Made by a program: the position numbers and the translations under genes. 64,000 nucleotides of DNA, taken from contig OZ240232.1 in the NCBI GenBank assembly GCA_965197895.1, forward strand, positions 228,211 through 292,210. Direction: 5' to 3'. The notes under the pieces are model-generated. The model had not been told where the DNA came from. It saw nothing but the letters and a program-made list of their open reading frames with translations, and ran no database searches. Within the stretch, counting starts at the first letter, position 1, and every line of letters starts with the position of its first letter. Below, in pieces: positions 2,127 to 48,300 of this stretch. The DNA is from Candidatus Versatilivoraceae bacterium (lineage in GTDB: Bacteria; Acidobacteriota; Terriglobia; Versatilivoradales; Versatilivoraceae).

Positions 2127-2231
2127 TTTGAATCGACTCCTGGAGTCAAGATCCCTTCTTGTCGGAACGTCGGGTCGGTGGCTACGGTGTCACCGCGGCC
2201 CGATGGCCTCTTAAAGAGAATTCACCGTTCA

Positions 2232-3602: not shown

Positions 3603-3753
3603 GGATGCGTCCTGGGTCCCCAAGCTTGTATTCTGTGGCCTCTTCCGTACAGCGGTCGATCGGGCTGTGAACCGGTCCAAGCGGAAGCCGCCCCTGCAGG
3701 CCCTTTATTGCCGCGGGCACCGCAGCGATTGGATAAGCGGGCACGGCTCCCGG

Positions 3754-4452
3754 TCAGGGCTTGTCGGGCCGCATCCGACGTTTCAACTCATCCAGGCTGA
3801 ATCGATTCTCCAGGAAATCGAAATATTCGGCTTCTTCATCGCGGACCATCTGTGCCTTGGCCGCCAGTGAATCGACGATGCCTTCCGGGATTTTGATCAA
3901 ACCGCTCTCGTCTCCGTGCAGCAGATCGCCCGGTGCGATGGTTAAACCGCCGACGGTAACGGTTGTGTTGAAGCTGACGTAGGCCGGATACCCGTGGGAA
4001 GCCACCCAACCGGCGCTGAAGATCTGAAATTCGGGCGTTCGCTGCGCGATGCCGCTTCGATCTCGGGCATTGGCATCGGTGACGATGCCAATGCAACCCA
4101 GTTTGTCCAAAGCACAGCAGAACATATCTCCGATGACGCAACATCGCTGGCGATCGTGACCATTGTGCTTGATCACCAGCACGATGGGCCGGGGGGCCGC
4201 TTCCAGGGCTTCCAGCAACTCGCCGATTCTAGGCGACCGCCGGTCGCCGGGAGTGGTGCTGTCCGCCGTGGCCGTGACCGCGTAGCCGGCCATCGGTTTG
4301 AGCCGGGGGAACTGGCAAACGAGCTGGTTGGAGGCATAGCCGGTGGCTCGATCGCGAACGCCGTACTTCTCTATGGCGTTGGAAACAGTGGCCGTATCGA
4401 AGGTCCTCAGAGCGTCCAGGGCTTGCGGCGAGGGATTGGATTTCTTGGTCAT
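3754..4452 (-). CDS. RraA family protein (HMG/CHA aldolase / RNase E regulator fold)
   Basis: ATG at 4452 gives MTKKSNPSPQALDALRTFDTATVSNAIEKYG; the TATVSNA motif and 233-aa length match the RraA-like family. The track ORF 3754..4746 has a non-protein-like N-extension. Confidence 0.75.
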   Translation of the reverse strand: MTKKSNPSPQALDALRTFDTATVSNAIEKYGVRDRATGYASNQLVCQFPRLKPMAGYAVTATADSTTPGDRRSPRIGELLEALEAAPRPIVLVIKHNGHDRQRCCVIGDMFCCALDKLGCIGIVTDANARDRSGIAQRTPEFQIFSAGWVASHGYPAYVSFNTTVTVGGLTIAPGDLLHGDESGLIKIPEGIVDSLAAKAQMVRDEEAEYFDFLENRFSLDELKRRMRPDKP

Positions 4453-4655
4453 TGGGTCTCCTATGTCCTCAACCAGGGCAGAGAACTGAAAACTGGATTG
4501 GTAGCAACCTGCCGGAGTGATGAACACGGGCTGCGGGCGTGGATCCCATCCCAAGTCCCGGAGAACGTTCCCCGTAGCTGCTTGCGCCGGCTTCCCATCG
4601 ATTCTGGTCTGGAACCGGCCACCGAGCGGAGCGGTGAGCGCCCGGCTGAGAAGGC

Positions 4656-5537
4656 TCAGACGCCTTTGGCAATTCTCTCCTGCAAGTCGGCCATTTGCTC
4701 CATCTGTTTCATGAAGGCGATGGTTCCGGTGAGGATGGTTCTCCAATCGGGTTTGGCCGGAACGCTGTCGAGAGAGATATAGCCCGAGAACCCCATGGCG
4801 TTGAGAGTCCGCACAACCTGCAGAAAGTCGATATGACCGGTTCCGGGCGCCTGCCGGTTGTTGTCGGCCAAATGGATATGCATCAGCCGGTCACCGGCGG
4901 CCCGGAGGGCGTCGTTCAGGGGACCATCTTCCATGTTTACGTGGAAGAAATCGGCTAGGACGCCCAGGTTGCTGGCTCCGATCTCTTCAACGATGTCTTT
5001 GGCTTCAACCAGGCTGTTCAGAAAACCGGCGTAGCCTTCGAAACGATTGATGGGCTCGATGGCGATCTCGACGTTGCGTTCGGCTGCATACTCTGTGATT
5101 TCTCGGGTGGATTTGATGAAATTGGCGCGCAGGACGTTTCGGGGCGTCTTGGCCACCGGGTACTCGGATTGCGCCGGAGAGGCGACAATTTCAAAGACGG
5201 GAGGCTCGTCGAAGGTCGTTGCCAGATCGACGCTTTTTTTGGCATAGTCTACGCCGTGGCGCCGCTCCGATTCGTCACTCGAGGCCAGGTCCCGGACTTC
5301 GCCCGCGTGCCACGGTGCCCAGGCTCCAATCAAAGCCGGCACTTGTAGGCCCAGGGAGGTGGCCAGGTCCTTCACCTCGTCAAATTGCCTGGCATCGATG
5401 CGGTCCGGCTCGGCGTCCAGGTCGACACCGTCATAGCCCGCTTGGGCCACAGCCTCCAGAACCTCGCGGGGTTTCTCCCAGACGTTGCCGCCGCTCGACG
5501 CCAGCGTGCAGAGAATCACTGAATACTTGTGCCCCAT
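4656..5537 (-). CDS. sugar phosphate isomerase/epimerase (xylose-isomerase-like TIM barrel)
   Basis: The pattern ...IEPINRFEG...HIHLADNNRQAPGTGHIDF is characteristic of AP_endonuc_2. ATG at 5537 has a GGAGG SD 9 nt upstream, whereas the track start at 5558 lacks one. Confidence 0.8.
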   Translation of the reverse strand: MGHKYSVILCTLASSGGNVWEKPREVLEAVAQAGYDGVDLDAEPDRIDARQFDEVKDLATSLGLQVPALIGAWAPWHAGEVRDLASSDESERRHGVDYAKKSVDLATTFDEPPVFEIVASPAQSEYPVAKTPRNVLRANFIKSTREITEYAAERNVEIAIEPINRFEGYAGFLNSLVEAKDIVEEIGASNLGVLADFFHVNMEDGPLNDALRAAGDRLMHIHLADNNRQAPGTGHIDFLQVVRTLNAMGFSGYISLDSVPAKPDWRTILTGTIAFMKQMEQMADLQERIAKGV

Positions 5538-7123: not shown

Positions 7124-7188
7124 TTCTTTGCAGAGGGGTCTCGCTCCGGGGATCGGGCGGGTGTACGACAAAAACGTTGGAATCGCAA

Positions 7189-7670
7189 ACCGGTTTAACG
7201 GGACATGGTCCTTGCTCCCGAAAGGCCATGAAGGCCGGTTGTTTCACCCTCGAATGATCCGCCCCGTCGTGGGGGGCGGGGGCCCCACTTGCCTGAAACA
7301 AACCTGGGCTCGGGTGACGGAAAATCGGTTCAACAGATTGAAAGAAAGGGGGTTGGAGAGGAATTGACAACTTCTGGGGGTTATCCAGGAAGGACACGGA
7401 GCCACACCCTACAATTCCCGGCGTTGGGTCTCGGCGTCGAGCATGAGTCGATCCCTGATTAACATCGATAGACAGGATAAACAGGATGGTTTGGAGAGAG
7501 GTTTCAGCGTCTTGAGTTCGACCATCGCCTTTTCTTCAACAAGGATTCCAAAAACCCGCTCCCAAGTTCATGGATCACTTCAAACGTGCACCCGATCATC
7601 GAGCGAGTCAGCTTCCTGTGCAGCAACACCCTTACAAATTCCAGTAACGTTTAATCTCATCCATTACAGT
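7189..7670 (+). repeat. single copy of the dispersed ~490-bp repeat unit (MITE-like core plus spacer), directly upstream of integrase 1
   Basis: Near-identical to the units in the 16805-17885 array and to 25915-26440 (inverted). Contains ATCGATAGACAGGATAAACAGGAT 9-mer iteron inverted repeats. Confidence 0.7.
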
Positions 7671-7738
7671 CCATAACTGTATTTTATATCAGTGGTTTAT
7701 ATGAGTCCCGCAATCGCGCGGCCGGCTCGAAACATCCC

Positions 7739-7773
7739 TTGCAATCCACTACCATCCCCCATATAATTAGGGG
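7739..7773 (+). promoter_or_regulatory. sigma70-type promoter TTGCAA-17nt-TATAAT with the -10 box inside the palindrome CCCC-ATATAATTA-GGGG, abutting the integrase ATG (leaderless mRNA predicted)
   Basis: TTGCAA at 7739-7744, 17-nt spacer, TATAAT at 7762-7767, ATG at 7774. The same architecture recurs at 39825-39859 in front of integrase 2. Confidence 0.55.
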
Positions 7774-9006
7774 ATGATTAATGTAACCAAAACCACCCGC
7801 CTGCTACTTAAGACGAAACCCAAGGGCCGCCATCCCCCAAAGGCCCTCTCGGCTGCCTTCATCCGCTCCGCTCCGCCTGGAAGACACGCCGACGGGAACG
7901 GATTGTACCTCTTCGTCCAACCCAGCGGAACCCGCAGCTGGATTCAGCGCCTTCTCGTCCGCGGTCGCCGCCGTGAGCTCGGACTCGGAAGTGTTGCCCT
8001 CGTTCCATTGGCCGAAGCCCGGGAGAAGGCCCTCGCCAACCGCAAGCTCGCCCGCCAGGGCGGAGACCCGCTCGCCGAGAAGCGCCGTGCCGAAGGCATC
8101 CCCACTTTCGCCGAAGCCGCCATGCGTGTGCTGGAGCAGAAGCAGGGCGGATGGCGCGGGCAGCGTCACCCTCGCGAGTGGCTGTCGAGCCTGAGGCGGT
8201 TCGCCTTCCCTCGCATCGGCAAGGTGCCGGTCTCAGAGGTTACGAGCGCCGACGTGCTTGAGATCCTCACGCCCATCTGGCACCGGAAGATAGAGACGGC
8301 CCGGCGAGTGCGCCAGCGCCTGCGGGCGGTCCTGGAATGGGCGGTAGCGATGGAGTACCGCCTTGACAACCCCTGCGACCGGATCGGACCGGTGCTGGGT
8401 GCCCAACAGGACGTTACCGAGCACAGGCAGGCCGTGCCCCATCGGGAGGCGGGTGCGGTGATCCGTAGGGTGCGGGCATCGGCAGCGCCGCCGGGCGTCA
8501 AGTTGGCTCTTGAGTTCCTGGTGCTGACGGCAGCCAGGTGGGGCGAGGTGCGGTGGGCCGAGTGGGAGGAGATCGATCGCAGCGGGAGGGTGTGGACCGT
8601 CCCGGCCAGGCGGATGAAGACGAACCGCCGGCACCGGGTGCCGCTGTGTGGCCGCGCCCTGGAGATTCTCGACACTGCGGAGATACAGGAGGGGGGAGTC
8701 GGTCCACTGGTGTTCACCCATAGGGGCGGGAAGCCTCTCAATGACAGCGTGCTGCGCCGGCTGCTGCGGGAGCTTGGGATTGCGGCGGTGCCGCACGGTT
8801 TCCGCTCGACCTTCCGGGATTGGGCGGGTGAGGAAACGGATCATCCCCGGGAAGTGATCGAGGCGGCCTTGGCGCATGTGGTCCGGAACCGGGTGGAGGC
8901 GGCCTATGCCCGCTCGGACCTGTTCGAACGCCGGCGCACGTTGATGGACGAATGGGCGCGTTACCTGGCCCAAGGGTCGGGAGAGGATCTGGAGCCCGTG
9001 GGATAA
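7774..9006 (+). CDS. int: P4-type tyrosine integrase (DUF4102 arm-binding N-domain + phage-integrase catalytic domain)
   Basis: N-terminal GRHADGNGLYLFVQPSGTRSWIQR (Arm-DNA-binding), C-terminal HGFRSTFRDWAGEE...AHVVRNRVEAAYARSDLFERRR with the R..H..R..Y catalytic residues. ~85% identical to the 39860..41092 copy. Confidence 0.9.
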   Translation: MINVTKTTRLLLKTKPKGRHPPKALSAAFIRSAPPGRHADGNGLYLFVQPSGTRSWIQRLLVRGRRRELGLGSVALVPLAEAREKALANRKLARQGGDPLAEKRRAEGIPTFAEAAMRVLEQKQGGWRGQRHPREWLSSLRRFAFPRIGKVPVSEVTSADVLEILTPIWHRKIETARRVRQRLRAVLEWAVAMEYRLDNPCDRIGPVLGAQQDVTEHRQAVPHREAGAVIRRVRASAAPPGVKLALEFLVLTAARWGEVRWAEWEEIDRSGRVWTVPARRMKTNRRHRVPLCGRALEILDTAEIQEGGVGPLVFTHRGGKPLNDSVLRRLLRELGIAAVPHGFRSTFRDWAGEETDHPREVIEAALAHVVRNRVEAAYARSDLFERRRTLMDEWARYLAQGSGEDLEPVG

Positions 9007-9162
9007 AGAGGCGGCCAGGGATCGGACCGACTCCACAGAAGGCGAGTCAGCGCCTCTGAGAGAGTGTGCCAGTCTCTAAGCACGGGACTACACCCGGACC
9101 ACCGCCCTCTTCGACACGCTGATAGTCTTCAGAAAGCTTGAATCTGCCAGCATGGTGACTGC

Positions 9163-10128
9163 ATGCCCAAGACCAGGGAAACCATGATTGCCCACCTGAA
9201 CGGACGGGAAAAACTGCTGAGGCCTCTTGGCTTCACCCCCCAACAGGCCGAATGGATCACCCTGGTCTGCCTGCACTCGGGCCTGTTCACCCGAGACCAG
9301 GTCGAGGCTTTCTTCGGATACGCCAAGTCTACCGCCAACCGCTTTATCCAGGCGTTGCTCCAGACACGCATTTCACACAAGCCAATAGCCTCGGAGACCA
9401 TCACCGACGGCCGCCGAGTTTGCCGGATCTTCGGCAAGCAGATCTACGGGGAGCTGGAGGTCCCCCACATCCGTCACCGCCGGGAGACCTCGCTTGAAGT
9501 CACCCGGCGGCGACTGCTATCGCTCGATTTCGTGCTGGATCATCCGGAGTTGGCTTGGCTGCCGACCGAGCAGGAGAAGGTCGCCTGCTTCCAACAGCTC
9601 GGGATCGAGCGAGGCTTTCTGCCTTTCAGGATCTACTCCGGCCATGCCAAGGGGCAGGTCCGGTATTTCCCCCTCAGGCTACCGGTTGCCATGGGGCCGG
9701 AGGCGGCCGTATTCGTCTACATCGACCCCGGCATGGGAACCCGTACGGAGCTGGACTCCTGGAGACATACCCACCGGCCGCTTTGGCAGGCGCTCCGCGA
9801 GTGCGGCTGGCGGATCGAGGTGGTTGCGGTCGCCTGGGAGCAGGAACTCCTGGACCGCGCCGAGCGGGTGATGCAATCCTGGGTCGGCAGAGACCTGACT
9901 GAGGCCGGCAGAGAACTTCTCATTCTCCGGTGGGCTGTCTCCAACGCCGACCGGGAAACAGTCGAACGCTATGGTGGCCTCAATGCCGCCCTCAAGAAAA
10001 TCAACCAATTGAAGCAGGCAACGCCGGAGCCCCAGGGCCTGGGAATGATCGACGATTTCCACCTCTGGGGGTCAAGGCGGTGCCGTCGTAGGCATGCGCC
10101 ACTGAAAAAGGGGGGGTGGCTCCTCTAG
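9163..10128 (+). CDS. integrase-element-associated hypothetical protein (wHTH-like N-terminus; possible replication/maintenance function)
   Basis: 321 aa, co-directional with int. A 5'-truncated paralogue lies at 46972..47506. No recognisable catalytic motif. Confidence 0.55.
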   Translation: MPKTRETMIAHLNGREKLLRPLGFTPQQAEWITLVCLHSGLFTRDQVEAFFGYAKSTANRFIQALLQTRISHKPIASETITDGRRVCRIFGKQIYGELEVPHIRHRRETSLEVTRRRLLSLDFVLDHPELAWLPTEQEKVACFQQLGIERGFLPFRIYSGHAKGQVRYFPLRLPVAMGPEAAVFVYIDPGMGTRTELDSWRHTHRPLWQALRECGWRIEVVAVAWEQELLDRAERVMQSWVGRDLTEAGRELLILRWAVSNADRETVERYGGLNAALKKINQLKQATPEPQGLGMIDDFHLWGSRRCRRRHAPLKKGGWLL

Positions 10129-10323
10129 TGGCGCACGCTCTTGACCACCGCAATGCTTCTCTCTCAGAGAGCGGAGCCCTCTCTGCTGTGGTCGGGGCCT
10201 TGCCTGGAAAGCCTTGTTGGAAGCGGTTTGGCACGGATTCCTGGCGTCGGCTGAGACAGCCGTGGTGGGGTGGCGGCTGGCGTGTTCCCGCCTCGCCCGG
10301 CGCACCGCACGAGACGGGTGATG

Positions 10324-10459
10324 GTGGAGGGAGCGACCCCCCGATTTTTGCCGCTGGTGCGGCACCGGGGAGGGGTAAAGGGTGACAGGCAAAACGACAC
10401 CTTTACCCTCCCCTTAAAGGGGGGTCGCTCCCTCCACAGTGATCCCTGCGGGAAGGCTG
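10324..10459 (+). repeat. palindromic module copy 1: 17-bp perfect inverted arms GGAGGGAGCGACCCCCC / GGGGGGTCGCTCCCTCC around a nested hairpin, with tail ACAGTGATCCCTGCGGGAAGGCTG
   Basis: Arms at 10326-10342 and 10419-10435. Other copies at 41208-41342 (inverted) and 47711-47846 (different centre). Confidence 0.75.
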
Positions 10460-10619
10460 ACGAGCCGATGAGGAGGTCAGGGCCGCCGCATCGACCACAG
10501 GCGGTGCGCTGCGCGGACCGACTGGAAGGAATTCAGTGGGGCAGTGTGGCGGGTGACCAGGGTGTCGAAGAAATGCCTGAGGGCAGCCAGGCTTGGTTGT
10601 TGGTTGCGTTTGGACATCG

Positions 10620-16505: not shown

Positions 16506-16804
16506 ATTGATATTCGGCTGACCTGTCCCTCAGTAACTGTTCGGTCAAGCCGTGATGGCTTGGACCCGGACGAGGTTGGAGGTGCCTGCAATCACAGGCG
16601 ATCCGTCGGTTCTGCTCGCTGCGCCTCCCCGGGACGGCGGATGGTCTCCACGGCTTGGCCGAACGGTTACGTCCGCCAACGTCCTGGAGGGTCCAATGGA
16701 TTCCTTTTCGAAAAGAGGGATATAATGAGGGAACTTCAGTCGGATAAACCATATTAAGTCTATTATAATTAGAGGTTTACAAACTATAGGTTGCAGGCTG
16801 TGCA
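16506..16804 (+). repeat. P1 repeat copy carrying a ~130-bp internal insertion
   Basis: Shares both ends with the other P1 copies; the extra segment lies at 16520-16690. Confidence 0.6.
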
Positions 16805-17885
16805 GCAGCTTCTCGTCCTGTTTATCCTGTCTATCCTGTCTATCGATGTTCCCTAATGCAACAAACCGGTTTAACGGGACATGTCCCTACTCCGGAAAGG
16901 TCATGAAGGTCCGTTGTTTCACTCTCGAATGATCCGCCCCGTCGTGGGGGCGGGGGCCGGCTTGCCTGAAACAACATCTGGGTTCGGCTGAAGGAAAACC
17001 GGTTGAGGGGTTATCCAGGAAGGACACGAAGTTACACCCTACAATTCCCGGCGTTTGGTATCGGCCTCGAGCATGAAAAGACTAATTGACATCGATGGAC
17101 AGGATAAACAGGATTATTTGGCGAGAGGTTTCAGCCTCTTGAGTTCGACCATCGCCTTTTCTTCAACAAGGATTCCAAAAACCCGCTCCCAAGCTCATGG
17201 ACCCCTTCAAACGTGCACCCGATTATCGAACCAGTCAGCTTCCCGTGCAGCAGCTTCTCGTCCTGTCTATCCTGTCTATCCTGTCTATCGATGTTCCCTA
17301 ATGCAACAAACCGGTTTAACGGGACATGTCCCTACTCCGGAAAGGTCATGAAGGCCGGTTGTTTCACTCTCGAATGATCCGCCCCGTCCTGGGGGGCGGG
17401 GGCTATACTTGCCTGAAACAAACCTGGGTTCGGGTGAAGGAAAACCGGTTCAACAGATTGAAAGAAAGGGGGTTGGAGAGGAATTGACAACTTCTGGGAG
17501 TTATCCAGGAAGGACACGAAGTTACACCCTACAATTTCCGGCGTTTGGTATCGGCGTCGAGCATGAAAAGACTAATTGACATCGATGGACAGGATAAACA
17601 GGATTATTTGGCGAGAGGTTTCAGCCTCTTGAGTTCGACCATCGCCTTTTCTTCAACAAGGATTCCAAAAACCCGCTCCCAAGCTCATGGACCCCTTCAA
17701 ACGTGCACCCGATTATCGAGCCAGTCAGCTTCCTGTGCAGCAGCTTCTCGTCCTGTCTATCCTGTCTATCGATGTTCCCTAATGCAGCAAACCGGTTTAA
17801 CGGGACATGGTCCCTGCTCCCGAAAGGCCATAAGGGTCCGTTGTTTCACCCTCGAATGATCCACCCCGTCGTGGGGGCGGGGGCC
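16805..17885 (+). repeat. tandem array (~2.3 units) of the ~490-bp repeat
   Basis: The units beginning at about 16805 and 17230 are >90% identical, and a third partial unit begins at about 17725 and ends at 17885. Each unit holds a ~340-bp segment bounded by 23-bp inverted repeats ATCCTGTCTATCCTGTCTATCGAT / ATCGATGGACAGGATAAACAGGAT. Confidence 0.8.
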
Positions 17886-18341
17886 GAACCTGTCTGAGAT
17901 CACCCGCCAGGAATCATTGCTGCCGCCGCCTACGCGGCTCCCCTTGACCCCCCGGGCTGGCGCCCGGAGGATGATCATTAAAAAATCCTGTCCCCCGGCA
18001 GCGTTGTTATTTTTGGGAGAGCGGCGCAGCCGCGGCAGCACTTCGCCCTCGTGATGTTTGAGGGAGACTTTGGCCGCGCGTTCAGACCGCTTGCGGTTAA
18101 GGGGGAGGCCAGCAGCCATGCCGTCTGCCCGCAGTCGCACCGCCAAACCAGCGACGGGAAGATAGGCATGAAGACTCTTCATATCTGATAACGAATACTG
18201 ATACAGATACAGATATCCATGCTATCCCGCTGCCAGTAGGCCCTACGCGCCTCGCCTCACGAAGTTGTCGTACACCCGGGATCGGGCTTGCCTTTGGCTG
18301 GTGGTTGCCTGTAGCCTGGATCATGCGGGTTAGGAGAAAAG

Positions 18342-25641: not shown

Positions 25642-25914
25642 TCCAGGGAGGGGTCCCCGGCAATACTCAAAGTAGGGGTTTTAGGGCGAAGCAGGCCTTG
25701 GGCCGGGGGGAGCGGGCGCTGCCGCTGCTGCCCGAAGCCCGAGGAGTAGGGCCCCGAATGAATGCGACCAGGATGTTGCTTGAGGATTCGGGGACGGACG
25801 GCCCAAAGAGTCCCAAGGAGGCAATGGGAAGGCCGCTTACCAGACCTTCCCTGGCAGTGGGACTGTCAGGTGATTACCGTCACTGTACAGACACGGGCGG
25901 ACCAGAGGTAAGTG

Positions 25915-26440
25915 GGGCCCCCGCCCCCCAGGACGGGGCGGATCATTCGAGGGTGAAACAACGGATCCTTATGGCCTGTCGCGAGTAGGGACCATGTCCC
26001 GTTAATCGGGTTTGCTGCATTAGGGAACATCGATAGACAGGATAGACAGGATAAACAGGACGAGAAGCTGTTGCACAGGAAGCCGACTCGCTCGATGATC
26101 GGGTGCGCGTTTGAAGTGATCCAGTAGCTTGAGAGCGGGTTTTCGGAATCCTTGTTGAAGAAAAGGTGATGGTCGAACTCAAGGGGGTGAAAACTCTCGT
26201 CCCGGAGCATGCAGCCCAGACCATCAACAAACCATCCTGTTTATCCTGTCCATCGATGTTAATCAGGGATCGACTCATGCTCGACGCCGAGACCCAACGC
26301 CGGGAATTGTAGGGTGTGGCTCCGTGTCCTTCCCGGATAACCCCCACAAGTTGTCAATTCCTCTCCAACCCCCTTTCTTTCAATCTGTTGAACCGGTTTT
26401 CCGTCACCCGAACCCAGGTTTGTTTCAGATAAGTATAGCC
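25915..26440 (-). repeat. inverted copy of the ~490-bp repeat unit
   Basis: Reverse complement of the 16805-17885 array consensus. Confidence 0.75.
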
Positions 26441-26450
26441 CGAGCCGGAT

Positions 26451-35082: not shown

Positions 35083-35325
35083 GCCCGCATTTCTCACCGG
35101 GGGGCGTGATCATGGCGTAGGATTTTCCGCTTCAGCGCGTGCTCGTGACCGAAGAGCGTAGCCGGAACTACGTTCGAGGGAGCACGTGCGCGCTGAAGGG
35201 GAAAAGACAAGCCAGGGTGCGCCCAGCGTCGTGTGTAACTGCAAGCCCTCAATATAAGAGCAATAAGCTGCTGAAGACAACCTGCTTTTCATGACGTGTC
35301 CAGCGACCCGGTGAGAAATGCGGGC
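35083..35325 (+). mobile_element. 243-bp MITE with perfect 18-bp TIRs GCCCGCATTTCTCACCGG and an internal imperfect palindrome
   Basis: TIRs at 35083-35100 and 35308-35325. A second copy at 42055-43164 carries a group II intron. Confidence 0.75.
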
Positions 35326-39215: not shown

Positions 39216-39339
39216 GGCCGAGGAATCAAAGGTCGGGCACAGGGCGGGAGGATGCTAACACAGATCCAGCCCATCTCAACGGGAAGAGGCTTGCCTGAAA
39301 CCAATTGAGGGGTTTATCCACAAAGGCCAAAAAAAGAAA

Positions 39340-39635
39340 TCCATGAAGGTGATCCACAAAGAGCACGAAGGGGAAAAGAGATATCCACGAAGGGGCACGA
39401 AGGACCACGAAGGGCCACTAAGGGGTTGGAGAAGGCTCAAGAGGGATCCGCCAAAGGTCGGGAAGGGGGAATAGATTTCCAGGAAGGGGCTGAAGTATCT
39501 GTCAAGGGGGTAAAAGATTAATCCGCGAAGGGACTCTAAGGGGTTGGAAAAGACTCGAAAGGGGTCTGTGAAGGACCACGAAGAAAGACACTAAGGAAAA
39601 AAGAAATCCACGAAGGACACGAAGTTGCACCAACG
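39340..39635. repeat. array of >=12 degenerate 8-9-mer direct repeats (CACGAAGG / CACTAAGG) at ~10-25-bp spacing
   Basis: Seen directly: cacgaagggg, cacgaagggg, cacgaagga, cacgaaggg, cactaagggg, ctctaagggg, cacgaagaa, cactaagga, cacgaagga, cacgaagtt. A shorter inverted block lies at 31600-31700. Confidence 0.7.
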
Positions 39636-39824
39636 TTGCGAAAATAATGTAGATTTTGGATCGCTTCAAACGCGGATCTGATCATTGAGCTAGTCAGCTT
39701 CCTGTGCAGCAACATTCTTATAGATTCCAATGGCGTTTATCTTCGTCCAGTACAGTCTATTACTGTCTTTATTATCATTGACTTATGTGAGTTCCGTCGT
39801 CGCTTGGCCAGCTTGCATCATCCC

Positions 39825-39859
39825 TTGCAATCCACTGGCATCCCCTATATAATAAGGGG
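39825..39859 (+). promoter_or_regulatory. second copy of the TTGCAA-17-TATAAT integrase promoter inside the CCCC-TATATAATA-AGGGG palindrome
   Basis: Same architecture as 7739-7773; ATG at 39860. Confidence 0.55.
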
Positions 39860-41092
39860 ATGATTGCTGGAACCCATACCGCCTGTCTGCTACCCAGAAC
39901 CAAACCCAAGGGCCGCCATCCCCCAAAGGCCCTCTCGGCTGCATTCCTGCGCTCCGCTCCGCCCGGAAGACACGCCGATGGAAACGGATTGTACCTCTTC
40001 GTCCAGCCCAGCGGAACCCGCAGCTGGATTCAACGCCTCCTGGTCCGCGGCCGCCGCCGTGAGCTCGGACTCGGCAGCGTTGCCCTGGTCCCGCTGGCCG
40101 AGGCCCGGGAGAAGGCGCTCGCCAACCGCAAGCTCGCCCGCCAGGGCGGGGACCCGCTCGCCGAGAAGCGACGTAGCCAGGCCGTCCCCACCTTCGCCGA
40201 AGCCGCCATGCGTGTGCTGGAACAGAAGCGGGACGGATGGCGCAACCCGAGACACCCGCGCGAGTGGATCTCGAGCCTGAGGCGGTTCGCCTTCCCGCGC
40301 ATCGGCAAGGTGCCGGTCTGTGAGGTCACGAGCGCCGATGTCCTTGAGATCCTCACGCCCATCTGGCACCAGCAGGCCCCCACGGCCCGGCGGGTGCGCC
40401 AGCGCCTGCGGGCGGTCCTGGAATGGGCCGTAGCCATGGAGTACAGGATCGACAACCCCTGCGACCGGATCGGCCCGGTCCTGGGTCTCCAACAGGACGT
40501 TATCGAGCACATGCAGGCCTTGCCCCATCGGGAGGTGGCTGCGGTGATCCGGACGGTGCGGGTATCCCCAGCTCTGCCGGCCGCCCGGCTGGCCCTTGAG
40601 TTCCTGGTGCTGACGGCAGCCAGGTGGGGCGAGGTGCGGTGGGCTGAGTGGGAGGAGATCGATCGTAGCGGGAGGGTGTGGACCGTCCCGGCCAAGCGGG
40701 CAAAGACGAACCGCCGGCACCGGGTGCCGCTGTGTGGCCGTGCCCTGGAGATTCTCGAGGCGGCGCAGGCACTGGAGCAGGGAGCCGGTCCGCTGGTGTT
40801 CACCCATGGGGGCGGGAGGCCTCTCCATGACAGCCAGCTGCGCCGCCTGCTGCGCGAGCTTGGGGTTGCGGCGGTGCCACACGGGTTCCGCTCGACCTTC
40901 CGGGACTGGGCGGGTGAGGAAACGGACCATCCCCGGGGGGTGATCGAGGCGGCCCTGGCGCATGTGGTCCGGAACCGGGTCGAGGCAGCCTATGCCCGCT
41001 CGGACCTGTTCGAGCGCCGGCGTATCCTGATGGACGACTGGGCGCGTTACCTGGCCCAAGGGATGGAGGAGGAGTCGGAGCCCTTGGAGTAA
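39860..41092 (+). CDS. int: P4-type tyrosine integrase, copy 2
   Basis: 410 aa, collinear with 7774..9006. Confidence 0.9.
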   Translation: MIAGTHTACLLPRTKPKGRHPPKALSAAFLRSAPPGRHADGNGLYLFVQPSGTRSWIQRLLVRGRRRELGLGSVALVPLAEAREKALANRKLARQGGDPLAEKRRSQAVPTFAEAAMRVLEQKRDGWRNPRHPREWISSLRRFAFPRIGKVPVCEVTSADVLEILTPIWHQQAPTARRVRQRLRAVLEWAVAMEYRIDNPCDRIGPVLGLQQDVIEHMQALPHREVAAVIRTVRVSPALPAARLALEFLVLTAARWGEVRWAEWEEIDRSGRVWTVPAKRAKTNRRHRVPLCGRALEILEAAQALEQGAGPLVFTHGGGRPLHDSQLRRLLRELGVAAVPHGFRSTFRDWAGEETDHPRGVIEAALAHVVRNRVEAAYARSDLFERRRILMDDWARYLAQGMEEESEPLE

Positions 41093-41207
41093 AGAGGCCC
41101 AAGGGATCGGTTGCCCGGGGCAAACCAGGGTGAGAGCCAGGCTCGAAGTCCGGCGGCAGTCAAAGCCAGGTTGAGCAGGACAACCCGGGTCCAGGTCTTC
41201 AGCATTT

Positions 41208-41342
41208 CAGCCTTCCCGCAGGGATCACTGTGGAGGGAGCGACCCCCCTTTAAGGGGAGGGTAAAGGTGTCGTTTTGCGTGTCACCCTTTACCCCTACCC
41301 GGTGCCGCACCAGCGGTCAAAAAGGGGGGGTCGCTCCCTCCA
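41208..41342 (-). repeat. palindromic module copy 2 (inverted relative to integrase; centre identical to copy 1)
   Basis: Reverse complement of 10324-10459. The adjoining 41350-41520 is the inverted 3' flank of the 9163 gene family. Confidence 0.75.
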
Positions 41343-41660
41343 CCAGCACCCCTCTCGTGCGGCGCGCCGCCGCGCCGGTCGGGAGGGGGACACGCGAGGC
41401 GCAGCCTCGCTTCGCTGTTTCGCATTGGACGCGGAAAATGCTTGTCCTTCCGCGTCTGATGCGGCGTTTCGGGAAAACCCTTAACCACAACGGAGAGGCC
41501 TCCGCCCTCTGAGAGAAAAGCGTTGTCGTGCTCAAAAACATGTCACCCCTCGATGTCACCCCCCCCCTTCGGAAAGGGTGACACCCATACGGCGGCATCT
41601 GCTTGACCCCCAGAGGCGGAAATCGTCGACCATTCCGCGGTCATTGGGTGAGCCTGTTTC

Positions 41661-41897
41661 TTGCTCCGATTCATCCCCGCGTCTGTGGGGAACAGGACCG
41701 TGACCAGTATTCCCGAATGGCTGAAGACGGATCATCCCCGGGAGGTGATCGAGGCAGCCCTGGCGCATGTGGTCCGGAACCGGGTCGAGGCAGCCTATGC
41801 CCGCTCGGACCTGTTCGAACACCGGCAGGTCCTGATGGATGACTGGGCGCGTTACCTGGCCCGAGGGACGGGGGAGAATCTGGAGCCCTTCGGGTAA
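41661..41897 (+). pseudogene. integrase C-terminal fragment (third copy, ~65 aa)
   Basis: DHPREVIEAALAHVVRNRVEAAYARSDLFEHRQVLMDDWARYLARG. Homology begins abruptly at 41735. Confidence 0.8.
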
Positions 41898-42054
41898 ACA
41901 GGCCCGTGGACCCTGCCGGAGGTGTGGAAAACCCCGCGGCGCCGGACCGGTACGCTGCAAGCTCACTAGAGAGTTTCCCATACCTCCTTGGACGGGCACT
42001 CCCCGCCCACAGGCTCCACCGTCCCGGCGGCGGTCTTTTTGAATAATCCATTAA

Positions 42055-43164
42055 CCCGCATTTCTTGCCGGGGGGGCGTGAAAATGGCGCAGGAATTTTC
42101 CCCTCAGCGCGTGCTCGTGAGCGAAAAGCGTAGCGGTTTCTACGGTCGAGCGAGCATGTGCGCGCTGAGGGAAAAAGGACGAGCCAGAGTGCGCCCAGCA
42201 CCGTGTGTCATTGGAAACCGTCAAAATAGACCTACAAGCTGTTGAAAACACACCGTCGTTGCACGGTGTATCCAGCGACCCGGGTAGAGTCGAGGACTGG
42301 CGCGTTGACTATAGGGTCCGGTGGCTATTCCGTCGCTTTCGCTTCGGGCCTCAGTCCGGCTCCCTTATCACGTTTCCAGTCCCCGCTCTCCGAACCGGAC
42401 GTGCGGTTTTCCCGCATCTCGGCTCTCCAGTGGGATCATGCCTCTCGCACACAGGTCTCCGCTCGCATCCGTGGACGACTCCTATGGGACTGGCACTCGT
42501 CCCCCACTCCATCCACGTCCGCTCGCGGGTTGCCGCCAGGCCTGTTGACGCCCCGACGACGCCGTCCTCATCAGACGACCCCTTCGCTTTGGCATGTGAT
42601 GCTTCCGGAGTCTCCGGTCCTTTTGCCGGGGTTTCAGGCTTTCGCCACTCCCGGGACCCTTCCCCCTTCGGTCACCGCTCCTCACCTGAGGCCCCTTCCC
42701 TCCACCGGCATTACCCGGCTTCTCCAGTACTACGAGCCTCTCCGCCACCCTGCCGGCCCAGCCTCCCCCTCACGGGGTCCCGGTTCGATGCGTGCCTCAC
42801 CACCCACAGGGCTTCCCATGTTGCCACCTTCTTCCCCTTCCATGCGTGCCAGCGCCACTACCCCGGCGGATCCCGAGGGGTGCCCGCGTCGCTCGCTTCC
42901 CCCTCCGTCTTCGGCCTTCCCCATTTCTCAGGTGGGTCGCCCCCCGCATTGCCCGTTTCGAGGCCTGCTCGACGTTCACTCGCGTTCCGGCCCGCATGTT
43001 CGCTGAACCGCCCAAAGCAGCCCTTTGAACCAGGGTGCTTCAGACCCTATCGTTACCTCCATGATCCGCCCTGGCTGCTACCAACCGGAGCGACAGTTGT
43101 TGGACGGGTTTCGCACCCGTTAGAAGAAGGCGCCTTTCCATGGCGCACTGAGAAATGCGGGTTA
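42055..43164 (-). mobile_element. second copy of the 18-bp-TIR MITE, interrupted by a group II intron
   Basis: Left TIR 42055-42071; right TIR TGAGAAATGCGGGTTA at 43149-43164. Collinear with 35083-35325 except for the insert at 42285-43148. Confidence 0.75.
42285..43148 (-). ncRNA. ORF-less group II intron (864 nt)
   Basis: Minus-strand 5' end GUGCGC, 3' end ...CUCGACUCUAC. Domain V GAGCCGAGAUGCGGGAAAACCGCACGUCCGGUUC at 42392-42427. The insertion is precise relative to the empty MITE copy. No RT ORF. Confidence 0.7.
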
Positions 43165-43363
43165 GGCTGTCTCAGGACCGCGCTCTTCTTCAGCAATGGC
43201 GCGCCGTCCGTCAATGACCAGAGACCGGTTCCCTAATCTCATCAGTCCTTTAGTAAGGTGTGGCTCGAACGTGCTGTGTTTAAAATCACCCAAATACGTT
43301 ATAGTGTGCCTTTCATCATCTAACCCCTTCAGACATTACCCGAGAAACCGGAGAGAACTCGTC

Positions 43364-46300
43364 ATGGGAAACCCCGCTTTGACTGCCGCTTGCCTGCACC
43401 GATTTAGATTTCAAACCGCCCTGGCGTGCCTGCTGGCCTGTGTCTGGACCGTAGCTCTGAGTGTCGAAGGCAGCGCTCAGGACCACGCCGGGGACAAACA
43501 GGCGCTAGTCGCGCTCTACAACGCCACCGACGGCCCCAATTGGGCCAACAACGAAAACTGGTTGAGCGAGGAGCCGCTCGAGAACTGGTACGGCGTCAGC
43601 GTCAGCGATGGACGTGTTACGAGGCTTTTTCTCGCCGGCAACCAACTGACGGGCGCCATTCCTGCCGAGTTGGGCAACCTCTCCAACCTCACGGGGCTGA
43701 TTCTCTCCAGCAACCAACAATACTTGCCTGAAACGAGAACCTTTGAAGGGGGACTGACGGGCGCCATTCCTGCCGAGTTGGGTGACCTCTCCAGCCTGGA
43801 GGTCCTGGATCTCGCCGGCAACCAACTGACGGGGACCATCCCCGCCGAGTTGGGTAACCTCTCCAGCCTCACGGGGCTGTTTCTCCGGAACAACCAACTG
43901 ACCGGGACCATTCCGCCCGAGTTGGGCAACCTCACCAATCTCAGGTGGTTGGATCTTGCAAACAACCAGCAATACTCGCCTGAAACGAGAACCTTTGAAG
44001 GGGGACTGACGGGAGCCATTCCTGCCGAGTTGGGTGACCTCGCCAGCCTGGAGGTCCTGAATCTCGGCGGCAACCAACTGACGGGGACCATTCCGACGGA
44101 ACTCGGTGACCTCGCCAACCTCACGCGTCTGTATCTCGCCGGCAACCAACTGACGGGGACCATCCCCGCCGAGTTGGGTGACCTTTCCAGCCTCGTGGGC
44201 CTGGATCTCTCTGGCAATCAACTGACGGGGACCATTCCGCCGGAGCTGGGTGACCTCTCCAACCTCACGGAGCTGATTCTCTCCATCAACCAACTGACGG
44301 GAGCCATTCCGACGGAACTCGGTGACCTCTCCAGCCTCACGAGGCTGTATCTCCACAACAACCAACTGACGGAACCCATCCCTCCGGAGTTGGGCAACCT
44401 CTCCAACCTCACGGAGCTGATTCTCTCCAGCAACCAACAATACTCGCCGGAAACGGGAACCTTTGAAGGGGGACTGACGGGGTCCATCCCGCCCGAGTTG
44501 GGTGACCTCGCCAACCTCACGCGTCTGTATCTCGCCGGCAACCAACTGACGGGGACCATCCCCGCCGAGTTGGGTAACCTCTCCAACCTCACGGAGCTGA
44601 TTCTCAACAACAACCAACTGACGGGTCCCATCCCGACGGAACTCGGTGACCTCGTCAGCCTCACGAGGCTGTGGCTCTCCACCAACGAACTGACAGGCCC
44701 CATCCCCGCCGAGTTGGGTAACCTCTCCAACCTCACGGAGCTGATTCTCAACATCAACCAACTGACGGGTCCCATCCCGACGGAACTCGGTGACCTCGTC
44801 AGCCTCACGAGGCTGTGGCTCTCCACCAACGAACTGACAGGCCCCATACCCGCCGAGTTGGGTGACCTCTCCAGGCTCTTGGCGTTGTATCTCAACGGCA
44901 ACCAACTGACGGGGTCCATTCCTCCTGAACTCGGGGACCTCGCCAGCCTCACGAGGCTGTATCTCCACAACAACCAACTGACGGAACCCATTCCGCCTGA
45001 GTTGGGCAACCTCGCCAGCCTCAGGTGGCTGGTTCTCTCCGGCAACCAACTGACGGGGTCCATCCCGCCAGAACTCGGTGACCTCTCCAGCCTCGTGGGG
45101 TTGTATCTCAACGGCAACCAACTGACGGGGTCCATCCCTCCTGAACTCGGGGACCTCGCCAGCCTCACGAGGCTGTATCTCCACAACAACAAACTGACGG
45201 AACCCATTCCGCCTGAGTTGGGCAACCTCGCCAGCCTCAGGTGGCTGGATCTCTCCGGAAATCAACTGACAGGGACCATTCCTCCAGAGTTGGGTAACCT
45301 TTCCAGCCTCGTGGCACTGAATCTCGCCGGCAACCAACTGACGGCATCCATCCCTCAGAGTTTCACCAGCCTGATGCTGGAGCATTTCTACTTCCATGGA
45401 AATCCCGGTCTGAGCGTGCCGGATGACGTTGCCCTGCGGGAGTGGCTGGATGGCATCAAGGAACTCCGGGACCAGGATTACTCCCCCGCTACACCCTTTG
45501 TTCCGGTGATCCTGAGCTCCGCCGGGCAAAACAATTCTTTCTTCACCTCGGAGCTGACCCTGACCAATCGAGGAACCGTGGCGGCACCTCTGACCTACAC
45601 CTACACGGCTCATAGGGGAGGGGGAAGCGGCGTTGCCAATGACAGTCTGCGTCCCGGGGAGCAAAGGATCATTTCCAATGCCATCGAGTACCTCAGAACC
45701 CGGCTCATTCCCATCCCCATCCCCGGCACCGGCAATCGGATTGGGACGTTACGGGTAACGCTCGGACAGTTTTCATCGTCCCAGGTGGGGGTCACGGTGC
45801 GGACCACCACCACGGTGCCCGAGGGTCGCGCCGGTCTGGCCTACCCCGGGGTTTCCGCAGAGGCCGGTTTCGATGAAGCCGTGTATTTGTGCGGCCTGCG
45901 CCAGAACCAACAAGATCGCTCCAACGTTGCCTTCCAGAACCTGGGGACAGATGCCGACGGTCCCATTACCTTGAGGACCACGGTGTTTTCGGGAGACCCG
46001 GAGGATAGCCGTCCCCACGTTCTCGAGGATAGAACCCTGCAGCCGGGCGGGTTCTATCAGTATTCGGGGTTGTTGGGGGTGTTGGCCAGTGTGGGCGGCA
46101 ACCGACAGGGCTACGTCAAGGTGGAACGGGTTGAGGGGACGGCTCCGTTCTATGCCTACGGCGTCATCAACGACCAGGCCAACTCAGATGGGTCGTTCGT
46201 CTTTCCGGCCACGGCCAGTTTGCTCGAGGGGACAACGGGACAGACCCTGCCGGTGATTGTCGAGACCGGAGTCTTCACCAGCGAGCTGATGGTGACCAAC

Positions 46301-46966
46301 TTCTCAGACGTTGCCAAGACGGTGACCTTCCGCTTCAGGGCCGATGCGGTCCAGACTCCCGACAAGACGGCCACAGTGGAATGGACCTTCCATCCCGGCC
46401 AGCAAATGATCGTCCCCAACATCGTCGACATGGTGCGCAAGTTGGGAGCAGCAGGGGTCGGGCGGGCCGGACAGACCTTTGCCGGGGCACTGTTCGCCAC
46501 CGTGGCCGAGGGGGACATGAGCGGGATAGCGATCGGAGCCCGCACCAGCTCCTCCGACGGCCGCGGCGGGCAGTACGGGGTTTACTACAACGCGGTGCCC
46601 TACGGGGGGGCGTTCCTGGAAGGCGCCTGGGTGGAGGCTCTCCAGCAGAACGAGGAGAACCGCAGCAACCTGGCGCTGGTCAACACCGGTGAAGTCGATG
46701 ACAGTCCCAGTGTCTTTCAACTCGACATCTACGATGGAGCGACCGGGATGTTGGCCAACACGGTCACCGGCCTGACGGTTCCGGCCGGAGGGTGGCGTCA
46801 GATCAACACCCTCCTGGGGGACTATGCTCCCGGCACCATGCAAGGCTATGTGCGGATCAGCAAGATTTCAGGCAACAATCCCTTCCTGGCTTACGGAATC
46901 ATCAACGACGGCGGGGCGCCGGGACAGCGCAGCGGCGACGGGGCCTACCTGCCGGCTCGGGAGTAG
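43364..46966 (+). CDS. secreted plant-type leucine-rich-repeat protein (~30 x 24-aa LRRs) with duplicated uncharacterised C-terminal domain
   Basis: ATG 43364 with a GGAGAG SD. Signal peptide, then the LRRNT-like cap ALVALYNATDGPNWANNENWLSEEPLENWYGVSV, then repeats LxxLxLxxNQLTGxIPxELGNLSN. The last ~520 aa form two homologous ~250-aa halves. Confidence 0.85.
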   Translation: MGNPALTAACLHRFRFQTALACLLACVWTVALSVEGSAQDHAGDKQALVALYNATDGPNWANNENWLSEEPLENWYGVSVSDGRVTRLFLAGNQLTGAIPAELGNLSNLTGLILSSNQQYLPETRTFEGGLTGAIPAELGDLSSLEVLDLAGNQLTGTIPAELGNLSSLTGLFLRNNQLTGTIPPELGNLTNLRWLDLANNQQYSPETRTFEGGLTGAIPAELGDLASLEVLNLGGNQLTGTIPTELGDLANLTRLYLAGNQLTGTIPAELGDLSSLVGLDLSGNQLTGTIPPELGDLSNLTELILSINQLTGAIPTELGDLSSLTRLYLHNNQLTEPIPPELGNLSNLTELILSSNQQYSPETGTFEGGLTGSIPPELGDLANLTRLYLAGNQLTGTIPAELGNLSNLTELILNNNQLTGPIPTELGDLVSLTRLWLSTNELTGPIPAELGNLSNLTELILNINQLTGPIPTELGDLVSLTRLWLSTNELTGPIPAELGDLSRLLALYLNGNQLTGSIPPELGDLASLTRLYLHNNQLTEPIPPELGNLASLRWLVLSGNQLTGSIPPELGDLSSLVGLYLNGNQLTGSIPPELGDLASLTRLYLHNNKLTEPIPPELGNLASLRWLDLSGNQLTGTIPPELGNLSSLVALNLAGNQLTASIPQSFTSLMLEHFYFHGNPGLSVPDDVALREWLDGIKELRDQDYSPATPFVPVILSSAGQNNSFFTSELTLTNRGTVAAPLTYTYTAHRGGGSGVANDSLRPGEQRIISNAIEYLRTRLIPIPIPGTGNRIGTLRVTLGQFSSSQVGVTVRTTTTVPEGRAGLAYPGVSAEAGFDEAVYLCGLRQNQQDRSNVAFQNLGTDADGPITLRTTVFSGDPEDSRPHVLEDRTLQPGGFYQYSGLLGVLASVGGNRQGYVKVERVEGTAPFYAYGVINDQANSDGSFVFPATASLLEGTTGQTLPVIVETGVFTSELMVTNFSDVAKTVTFRFRADAVQTPDKTATVEWTFHPGQQMIVPNIVDMVRKLGAAGVGRAGQTFAGALFATVAEGDMSGIAIGARTSSSDGRGGQYGVYYNAVPYGGAFLEGAWVEALQQNEENRSNLALVNTGEVDDSPSVFQLDIYDGATGMLANTVTGLTVPAGGWRQINTLLGDYAPGTMQGYVRISKISGNNPFLAYGIINDGGAPGQRSGDGAYLPARE

Positions 46967-47506: not shown

Positions 47507-47710
47507 AAGTCATTGTCAAATTGCGCAGACAAGCCCTGTATTTCCGCCTCTCTCAGAGGGCGGGGCCCTCGCCGTTGTGGTGTGCTCGTTTCAGGAAAAC
47601 CGTTACGGGACGCGGGTTTTCCCGCGTCCTCACCCCCTAAGGGGGCGGGGCTGTGCCCCGCGCGTCCCCCTTCCGGCCAGCGGAGATGGTGGCGCACAAT
47701 AAGGGAGAAA

Positions 47711-47846
47711 GTGGAGGGAGCGACCCCCCTTTTTGCCTTCAAAGTGCGCCACCGAGCAGGGATGACAATTGCGCACCAAATTGCGCACTTTTCCTCCCCT
47801 TTTCGTGGGGGGGCGCTCCCTCCACAGTGATCTCTGCGGGAAGGCT
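47711..47846 (+). repeat. palindromic module copy 3 (same arms, different centre GTGCGCCACCGAGCAGGGATGACAATTGCGCACCAAATTGCGCAC)
   Basis: Arms at 47713-47728 and 47806-47822 (one mismatch). The tail ACAGTGATCTCTGCGGGAAGGCTG is conserved. Confidence 0.75.
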
Positions 47847-48000
47847 GTCGAGTCGGCTAGGAAGCCGACAGCGGAAAAACAGCAGACCATAAATGGCCCT
47901 CAGGCCGAGACGGGTAAGCCTGGGGGATGCACACAACCCAATATCTCCGACCCGCAGCACGGGCAGCTTGCCACTCCACTTGACGGCCTCGGACTCAGGG

Positions 48001-48300
48001 TTGATACTCGGCTAACCTGTCCGCCAACATCCTGGAGCGTCCAGTGGGTTCCTTTTCAAAAAGAGGGATATAATGAGGGAACTGCAGCAGGCTGATTTGT
48101 AGTAAGTTTATTATAATTAATGGTTTATATTTGAGAGATTGCAGGCTGTGCAGCAGCTTCTCGTCCTGTTTATCCTGTCTATCGATGTTCCCTAATACAG
48201 CAAACCGGTTTAACGGGACATGGTCCCTACACCCGAAAGGCCATAAGGGTTCGTTGTTTCACTCTCGTATGATCCGCACGGCGGGGCGGGGGCGGGGGCG
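48001..48300 (+). repeat. P1 repeat plus the first ~140 bp of the 490-bp unit
   Basis: Collinear with 16506-16950 minus the internal insertion. Confidence 0.7.

Follow-up and report, generated by a model that had tools for sequence, protein, structure and literature searches.

Most of the open reading frame (ORF) has been deleted from the ORF-less TeI3 introns of Thermosynechococcus elongatus, leaving terminal remnants, and these introns are mobilized by driver proteins (Mohr, Ghanem & Lambowitz 2010, PMC2882425). RmInt2 homes into both inverted repeats of ISRm17, and RmInt1 is primed at the lagging strand (PMC4615759, PMC5894124). RmInt1 resides in ISRm2011-2, a member of the IS630 family, and represents an endonuclease-less IIB intron in a multicopy insertion sequence (IS), the spread of which it probably blocks (PMC5894124). 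In this study, we analyzed a 64,000-nucleotide (nt) stretch of contig OZ240232.1 (assembly GCA_965197895.1, Candidatus Versatilivoraceae bacterium, Acidobacteriota), hereafter referred to as the window. It contains an 865-nt insert, which is very probably a nonautonomous, ORF-less group II intron of the IIB type that arrived when it retrohomed into the terminal inverted repeat of a MITE (miniature inverted-repeat transposable element) derived from IS1380.

The repeat in question is a 243-bp element with terminal inverted repeats of 18 to 19 bp. Two copies are located in the window, and dozens of its ends were found in related loci. With the insert taken out, the copies at 35084-35324 and 42055-43161 could be aligned end to end at approximately 80% identity. 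Comparison with the empty copy 1 placed the insert of copy 2 at 42284-43148 on the minus strand, with a length of 865 nt. It is flanked precisely by ...CCAGCGACCCGG (last base, 42283) and TGAGAAATGCGGG (first base, 43149) and reads GUGCGCCAUGG...CUCGACUCUAC on the minus strand. An earlier note, made from the DNA letters only, had described collinear copies and a discrete insert, which holds, but its limits of 42285-43148 and 864 bp have to be corrected. The note had also pointed to a GUGYG start and an AY end. Both are present, since the intron RNA begins with GUGCG and ends with CUAC (an AC end) at the exact edges of the indel. When 3 or fewer mismatches were allowed, the window contained four occurrences of the 18-nt repeat end CCCGCATTTCTCACCGGG, compared to an expectation of 0.09. 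Two occurrences are the ends of copy 1; the third is the left end of copy 2 (2 mismatches, ...TCTTGCC...), and the fourth is its right end, which is split after ...TCTCA. The ligated-exon junction is predicted to be ...CAUUUCUCA/CCGGGUCG, also written as ...CCCGCAUUUCUCA/CCGGGUCGCUGG (here and below, a slash marks the insertion site). The repeats, the intron, and its 5' exon are arranged as follows.

35084..35324: repeat copy 1, which lacks the intron; both of its target sites are intact, at 35084-35101 (plus strand) and 35324-35307 (minus strand)
42055..42283: main part of repeat copy 2; its left inverted repeat at 42055-42072 (CCCGCATTTCTTGCCGGG) has 2 mismatches in the intron target
42284..43148, minus strand: ORF-less group II intron, IIB-type, 865 nt, GUGCG...AC, placed by the indel relative to the empty copy, the Rfam matches, and its relatives
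43149..43161, minus strand: 5' exon, formed by the outermost 13 nt of the right inverted repeat, CCCGCAUUUCUCA, with intron-binding site 1 (IBS1) UUUCUCA at 43155-43149 and IBS2 CCCGC at 43161-43157

An Rfam cmscan search of the whole window yielded only two matches, each of which lies on the insert's minus strand and reaches or exceeds the gathering score. RF02003 (group-II-D1D4-4) matched 43122-42980 with 79.4 bits (gathering score, 49; E value, 1e-15), and RF00029 (Intron_gpII, domains 5 and 6) matched 42427-42284 with 41.2 bits (gathering score, 40; E value, 1e-4). The covariance-model search suggested in the earlier note thereby came out in favor of an intron. To collect relatives, one genome per species was scanned with a 24-mer of domain 5, GCGGGAAAACCGCACGTCCGGTTC, followed by local blastn of the intron against the matching stretches. 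Introns of many phyla, in at least 113 genome stretches, have this 24-mer in common; loci labeled L plus a number are stretches with such a match that were compared with the window intron.

The window copy and ten ORF-less relatives were then aligned with MAFFT, and a consensus structure was derived by RNAalifold. It comprises 221 pairs, forming a central wheel and six domains. Standard pairs made up 96.0% of the cells, compared to 34 to 46% when the 3' partners were slid by 1 to 3 columns. Compensatory changes on both sides were observed in 67 of the 221 pairs, whereas sliding left 12 to 16 and shuffling gave 28.2 ± 3.4, with none of 500 shuffles reaching 67. The domains, all on the minus strand, are the following.

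42823..43133, minus strand: domain 1 (intron nt 16-326), from the RNAalifold consensus and compensatory changes, with the Rfam D1D4-4 match at 43122-42980
42744..42815, minus strand: domain 2, consensus helices 19-22
42670..42740, minus strand: domain 3, consensus helices 23-26
42438..42666, minus strand: domain 4 stub without an ORF, approximately 230 nt, from alignment with the ORF-bearing introns L074, L003, and L017
42392..42425, minus strand: domain 5, with an AGC triad, a 2-nt AC bulge, a GAAAA loop, and an extra bulged A at 42419
42287..42388, minus strand: domain 6, 102 nt and unusually long, with a bulged A at 42290; compensatory changes were seen in 13 pairs of helices 38-42

Domain 5 had been called textbook, with an AGC triad, a 2-nt bulge, and a GAAA tetraloop. 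The triad and the bulge are indeed there, but the loop is GAAAA and an additional A is bulged out (GAGCCG-A-GAU), so that the domain is not a textbook example. This unpaired A at 42419, in the lower helix after GAGCCG, was found in all family copies except L011, whereas none of the more distant relatives has it; evidently, it does not stand in the way of recent mobility. The note had advised looking for a bulged A, and domain 6 does carry a bulged branch-point A. It is located at 42290, the 7th nt from the 3' end, and pairing in the flanking helix is 100%, with compensatory changes in 4 pairs.

Recognition of the exons is assigned to three exon-binding sites (EBSs).

42924..42930, minus strand: EBS1 UGAGAAA, in the hairpin loop CCUGAGAAA (42932-42924), pairing with UUUCUCA at -7 to -1
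42943..42947, minus strand: EBS2 GCGGG, in the loop AAUGCGGGG (42950-42942), complementary to CCCGC at -13 to -9
42858, minus strand: EBS3 G, intron nt 291, in an internal loop of domain 1, from covariation with the +1 base of the 3' exon
42283, minus strand: IBS3 C, the first base of the 3' exon, pairing with the EBS3 G at 42858

The EBS3 alignment column, number 322, showed complementarity with the +1 base in each of the 11 aligned introns, with the states G:C, A:U, and U:A. This covariation identifies EBS3 and, with it, IIB-type recognition of the 3' exon. EBS1 and IBS1 covaried across more than 10 specificities among the relatives. A subfamily referred to as B (L097, L049, L011, and L045) is about 90% identical to the rest and occupies other sites (..AUUACA/, ..AAGACA/, ..GACACA/), with EBS1 changed to match: UGUAAU in L097, UGUCUU in L049, UGUGU in L011, and UGUGUUU in L045. 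More distant relatives showed the same agreement between EBS1 and IBS1 (CAUGGAU with AUCCAUG, GUCAAAG with CUUUGAC, and CAUAACG with CGUUAUG). The EBS2 pairing was clear only in subfamily A. These findings support the assignment of the insert to the group II introns of the IIB type, for which self-splicing is predicted from the sequence.

Sequences resembling the subfamily B sites also occur in the window. Arrays of the motif ATCCACGAAGG / CACGAAGG are located at 39288-39640, adjoining a tyrosine integrase gene (39860-41092), and the introns of L049, L011, and L045 are inserted in such array-type sequences (..TTATCCACGAAGACACA/CGAAGGACGACGAAGG). The window's best match to that site, 39382-39405 (3 mismatches), carries no intron.

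At least 19 full-length relatives of 860 to 916 nt were 88 to 96% identical to the window intron. Of the assemblies in which they were found, three belong to Candidatus Versatilivorator (Acidobacteriota, Terriglobia) and two to other Terriglobia; none represents the genome of the window. Fifteen of the 19 relatives listed, and 16 of 20 copies when the window intron is included, follow ...TA[G/A]CCCGCATTTCTCA with at most one mismatch in 13 nt and precede CC; the other 4 of 19 are located elsewhere. The 3' exons at this homing site were of the right-end type CCGGGTCGCTGG, as in the window, of the left-end type CCAGGGGGCATGATCATGG, or belonged to other elements that share only the terminal repeat. 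Both ends of the IS1380-type element therefore serve as intron target, and the suggestion that the terminal inverted repeat is the homing target is borne out by insertion after the same 13 repeat nt at either end. Local GC skew, used as an indicator of replication-strand bias, placed 13 of the 20 copies on one side.

Nine copies in chromosome OZ242296.1 were 100% identical over 869 nt, and a tenth differed at two positions. Their host repeats are only about 80% alike and differ directly inside the repeat end, which fits independent intron insertion and not passive spread with one MITE. Two pairs of copies, L099/L100 and L061/L031, share flanks. As L099 and L100 do so on both sides, they represent one duplicated locus, so that eight independent contexts remain for the nine copies. 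Intron-free and intron-bearing repeats were both found in related loci, as the earlier note had proposed to look for. Approximately 35 further repeat ends lacked an intron and read contiguously ...TCTCA/CC..., which shows that the insert is no intrinsic part of the element. No synteny was detected between the window and the related loci beyond the repeats. Two peculiarities are worth recording: the family copy of L095 (CBDAOQ010000003.1, 4488-5403) is enlarged by 48 nt inserted immediately 5' of the EBS1 loop, and L067 (2537-2579) holds a short 5' intron fragment at a degenerate repeat end.

The nature of the host element became apparent from a related genome. Locus L100 contains at 2179-4745 a complete IS of 1,698 bp without the intron, the repeats of which begin with CCCGCATTTCTCACCAGAG. 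Its transposase of 455 amino acids (aa) (2274-3641) matched Pfam DDE_Tnp_1_4 (8e-150) and NCBIfam NF033539 transpos_IS1380 (6e-123). Because the 243-bp repeat has the same ends as this IS1380 element, it can be regarded as a MITE sharing ends with the IS1380 family. No transposase homology was detected in the 64-kb window. The earlier designation as a MITE is consistent with the small size, the inverted repeats, the multiple copies, and the lack of a transposase, and it can now be refined to derivation from an IS1380-family IS. The elements are flanked by YTAR, with a perfect 4-bp direct repeat in 7 of 14 cases; of the window copies, one agrees at 3 of 4 positions and the other at 2 of 4. An origin from IS630 with TA duplication had been considered for the repeat and was dropped in favor of IS1380 after the transposase was found.

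This association extends beyond the family. ORF-bearing relatives, among them L020, L078, L044, L081, and L109, from Pseudomonadales, Nitrospirota, and Acidobacteriota, are located in IS1380-like ends (TAGCCCGGATTTCTCA/, TAGCCGGGATTATTCA/, and others). Taking ORF-bearing and ORF-less relatives from other phyla together (the same five loci plus L064, L043, and L079), the ends conform to TA[G/A]CC.G..T..TTCA/. An IS1380-family transposase gene is present in the same 8-kb block in L020, L081, and L109. In the literature searched, no paper described a connection of group II introns to IS1380 ends or their insertion into MITEs.

The intron does not encode a protein of its own. No open stretch of more than 106 aa is present on its sense strand, and all that is left of a reverse transcriptase (RT) gene are traces of its first and last codons, in accordance with the earlier description as ORF-less. 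The proximal helix of domain 4 (42666-42607) is conserved with ORF-bearing relatives. It is followed at 42610-42581 by a remnant of the N-terminal codons (..HAKAK..) with a 1-nt frameshift and a changed start codon. The counterpart in ORF-bearing relatives reads ..LRKALHAKAKE.., and the similarity runs through the Shine-Dalgarno and start region. At 42455-42436, the last RT codons are still recognizable (..FPWAKA followed by a TGA stop). The middle of domain 4, approximately nt 569-693 (about 125 nt), showed no detectable similarity to the ORF-bearing L074, L003, and L017. The window intron is therefore a nonautonomous retroelement, predicted to need a maturase/RT in trans.

Among the matches listed, the ORF-bearing introns most similar to the window intron are those of L003 and L004 (Vicinamibacterales) and of L074 (Candidatus Multivorans), with approximately 1.25 kb of extra sequence in domain 4. 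They have the identical domain 5 24-mer, and both the Shine-Dalgarno/start region and the last ORF codons of domain 4 align with the window intron. In contrast to it, they keep a 446-aa RT/maturase, lack the extra A in domain 5, and occupy other target sequences. L003, L074, and L017 encode proteins with RT and X domains, which reached the NCBIfam cutoff for group II RT/maturases (TIGR04416, 304 bits). The 446-aa homologs, thousands of which were returned by a protein search, with none of the best 120 traceable to the Versatilivorator genomes, contain only Pfam PF00078 (RVT_1) and the PF08388 maturase domain, with no endonuclease domain. The intron of L004 (OZ253664.1) measures approximately 4.2 kb owing to an insertion of about 2.2 kb inside its coding region, in which a long frame resembles a large serine recombinase. 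Plasmid relatives of a related intron protein were found in Buttiauxella, Xenorhabdus, Bradyrhizobium, and Paraburkholderia, without class labels; the one of Buttiauxella is located outside IS1380 ends. Sinorhizobium meliloti was absent from the 30 best plasmid matches, all of at least 44% identity. Our literature search returned no published assignment of Rfam D1D4-4 to a named intron class.

ORF loss has apparently occurred several times in this clade (L079, L084, L103/L015/L016/L018, and L064/L043); the domain 1 of the ORF-less L064 is 89% identical to that of the ORF-bearing L044. A metagenome scan with a 28-mer of subfamily A gave 0 matches, and a scan with the 3'-terminal 23-mer recovered only two distant introns.

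Based on these features, mobility can be pictured as follows. The intron copy would be transcribed by read-through. An RT/maturase of about 446 aa without an endonuclease domain, supplied by a related intron elsewhere in the genome, would bind the retained proximal part of domain 4, aid splicing, and form a lariat ribonucleoprotein. The intron RNA could then reverse-splice between A(-1) and C(+1) of the repeat. As the protein lineage lacks an endonuclease domain, we infer that cDNA synthesis would be primed by nascent DNA at the replication fork, as in RmInt1. With two inverted repeats per element, either strand may present a target, an argument made earlier for RmInt2. As the insertion splits the repeat 13 bp from its tip, that end has probably become unfit for transposition, by analogy with the blocking of ISRm2011-2 by RmInt1.

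Two other explanations were considered. In the first, one MITE acquired the intron once and the composite was spread by the IS1380 transposase, with no retrohoming involved. The similar 3' exons of L092, L076, and L077, which represent one MITE subfamily, agree with this, and the shared flanks of the two pairs mentioned above indicate that some copies are duplications. However, the hosts of identical introns diverge after the first two bases of the 3' exon (CCAGGTCGCTGG, CCAGGGGGCATG, CCTCCAGCTTCG, CCGCCAGCCTGC, and CCAGAGTTCGCAC), so that 100% identical introns sit in hosts of approximately 80% identity. Copies were also observed at left ends, at right ends, and inside a full-length IS, and sister copies with a re-tuned EBS1 occupy unrelated sites. 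We consider passive multiplication very improbable. We give practically no credence to the idea that the long form is ancestral, in which case the 865 nt would be intrinsic and the 243-bp copy a deletion derivative. Nothing beyond the bare comparison of the two window copies speaks for it, whereas the segment constitutes an entire ribozyme, has boundaries of its own, and is also found at unrelated sites. The earlier note had named an intrinsic position in most MITE copies as the finding that would refute its reading; given the approximately 35 further contiguous empty ends, the insert is discrete, and the ancestral long form is already refuted.

Retrohoming of a nonautonomous intron into the repeat end accounts best for the family as a whole, and several observations weigh against it. 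No RT motif is present anywhere in the 64-kb window. The tblastn search of the nearest intron protein against all loci gave no match in Versatilivorator stretches, and all 19 listed stretches of the three Versatilivorator genomes with a domain 5 match are ORF-less or cut by the block end. The search for a cognate intron-encoded protein or RT, as advised in the earlier note, thus found none in the window or among the Versatilivorator stretches listed, and the closest ORF-bearing ribozymes listed reach only 78 to 80% identity in domain 1. The window copy has 3 broken pairs in 221, compared to 0 or 1 in the copies of the burst; its private changes are a G:G mismatch in the stem beside EBS2 and a 1-nt deletion in domain 1. 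A promoter scan upstream of the intron detected no sigma-70-like site, and only one of the four target sites in the window is occupied, with two perfect sites among the three empty ones. These last points would be explained if the window copy had come by retrohoming and were now a dead relic, not transcribed, spliced, or mobile in this genome. The position of the intron, antisense to the upstream region of a leucine-rich-repeat (LRR) gene, the two perfect but empty targets only 7 kb away, and the lack of an RT within 64 kb point in the same direction. On the other hand, domain 5, domain 6, EBS1, EBS3, and the two splice sites have remained intact, with pairing to the exons preserved, 3 mismatches in 221 pairs are within the range of other copies, and 64 kb is a small sample of the genome. 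The window copy may be inactive; we regard the dead relic as a serious possibility, somewhat short of an even chance.

It is also conceivable that the ORF-less lineage proliferates without any ORF-bearing sibling, driven by a noncognate or free-standing RT, and that the clade is specialized on IS1380-family ends and acts as a brake on those transposons. We judge this unlikely. If this reading were true, repeated ORF loss would make nonautonomous group II introns much more common in uncultured soil bacteria than the "rare" of the reviews.

A 343-aa ORF runs antisense to the intron at 42205-43236. It was considered as a real protein and rejected, since it had no Pfam match and neither L077 nor subfamily B keeps the frame unbroken, in line with the earlier view that it is an artifact. 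Its length results from the purine-rich sense strand, and the ORF should not be called in annotation. The LRR gene next to it (43196-46966) encodes a protein of 1,256 aa with approximately 25 tandem units of 72 nt (24 aa), and the long minus-strand ORFs over it are probably artifacts as well. Other products encoded in the window include a CarboxypepD_reg/TonB outer membrane protein and a BNR/sortilin protein, a gene content loosely in keeping with Acidobacteriota.

The window is rich in further repeats. Interleaved families, in direct and inverted orientation and 85 to 98% identical, are located at 7131-7653, 16800-17900, 25906-26446, and 48019-48297 and contain TCCTGTCTATCCTGTCTATCGATG. A similar sequence, ATCCTGTCTATCCTGTGTATCCATG, precedes the insertion point of an ORF-less relative of 785 nt in L103 (Latescibacterota). 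Around the integrase region, segments of 7571-10471 are repeated at 39657-41905 and 47693-47862 with 81 to 92% identity, some of them inverted, which suggests two related integrative elements or their remnants.

The locus represents a layered parasitism, in which a nonautonomous retroelement resides in the ends of a nonautonomous DNA transposon. Nine identical copies in one Acidobacteriota genome testify to a very recent burst, and the exon-binding sites have been re-tuned to different repeats. The compact 865-nt ribozyme with its unusual domain 5 should be useful for studies of splicing and targeting. Moreover, it provides a natural case for studying the action in trans of endonuclease-less intron proteins and whether insertion disables IS1380-type ends.

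Compared with TeI3, the family has in common the deletion of the ORF with N- and C-terminal remnants, the many near-identical copies at distinct sites, good pairing between EBS and IBS, families of diverged target specificity, and a protein in trans, which for the window intron is a prediction. It differs in its host, an acidobacterium instead of a thermophilic cyanobacterium, and in its ribozyme lineage, represented by Rfam D1D4-4 and relatives with a 446-aa endonuclease-less protein. Furthermore, its main target is the inverted repeat of an IS or MITE, and no ORF-bearing sibling is among the listed stretches of its genomes. With RmInt2 it shares both terminal inverted repeats of an IS as target, an endonuclease-less protein lineage, and recognition by EBS1, EBS2, and EBS3. 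RmInt2, however, carries its own RT/maturase and has ISRm17 as its host, whereas the hosts here are an IS1380-family element and MITEs. RmInt1 belongs likewise to an endonuclease-less IIB lineage in a multicopy IS and serves as the model for fork-primed retrohoming; unlike the window intron, it is autonomous, and its target is inside the IS and not in the terminal repeat. Each ingredient is known: trans-mobilized ORF-less introns from T. elongatus, endonuclease-less introns in ISs from RmInt1, and the targeting of both repeats from RmInt2. New here are the host phylum, the IS1380/MITE target, the burst in copy number, the atypical domain 5, and a family with no ORF-bearing sibling so far. The family is one of recently multiplied "hitch-hiker" introns in soil Acidobacteriota.

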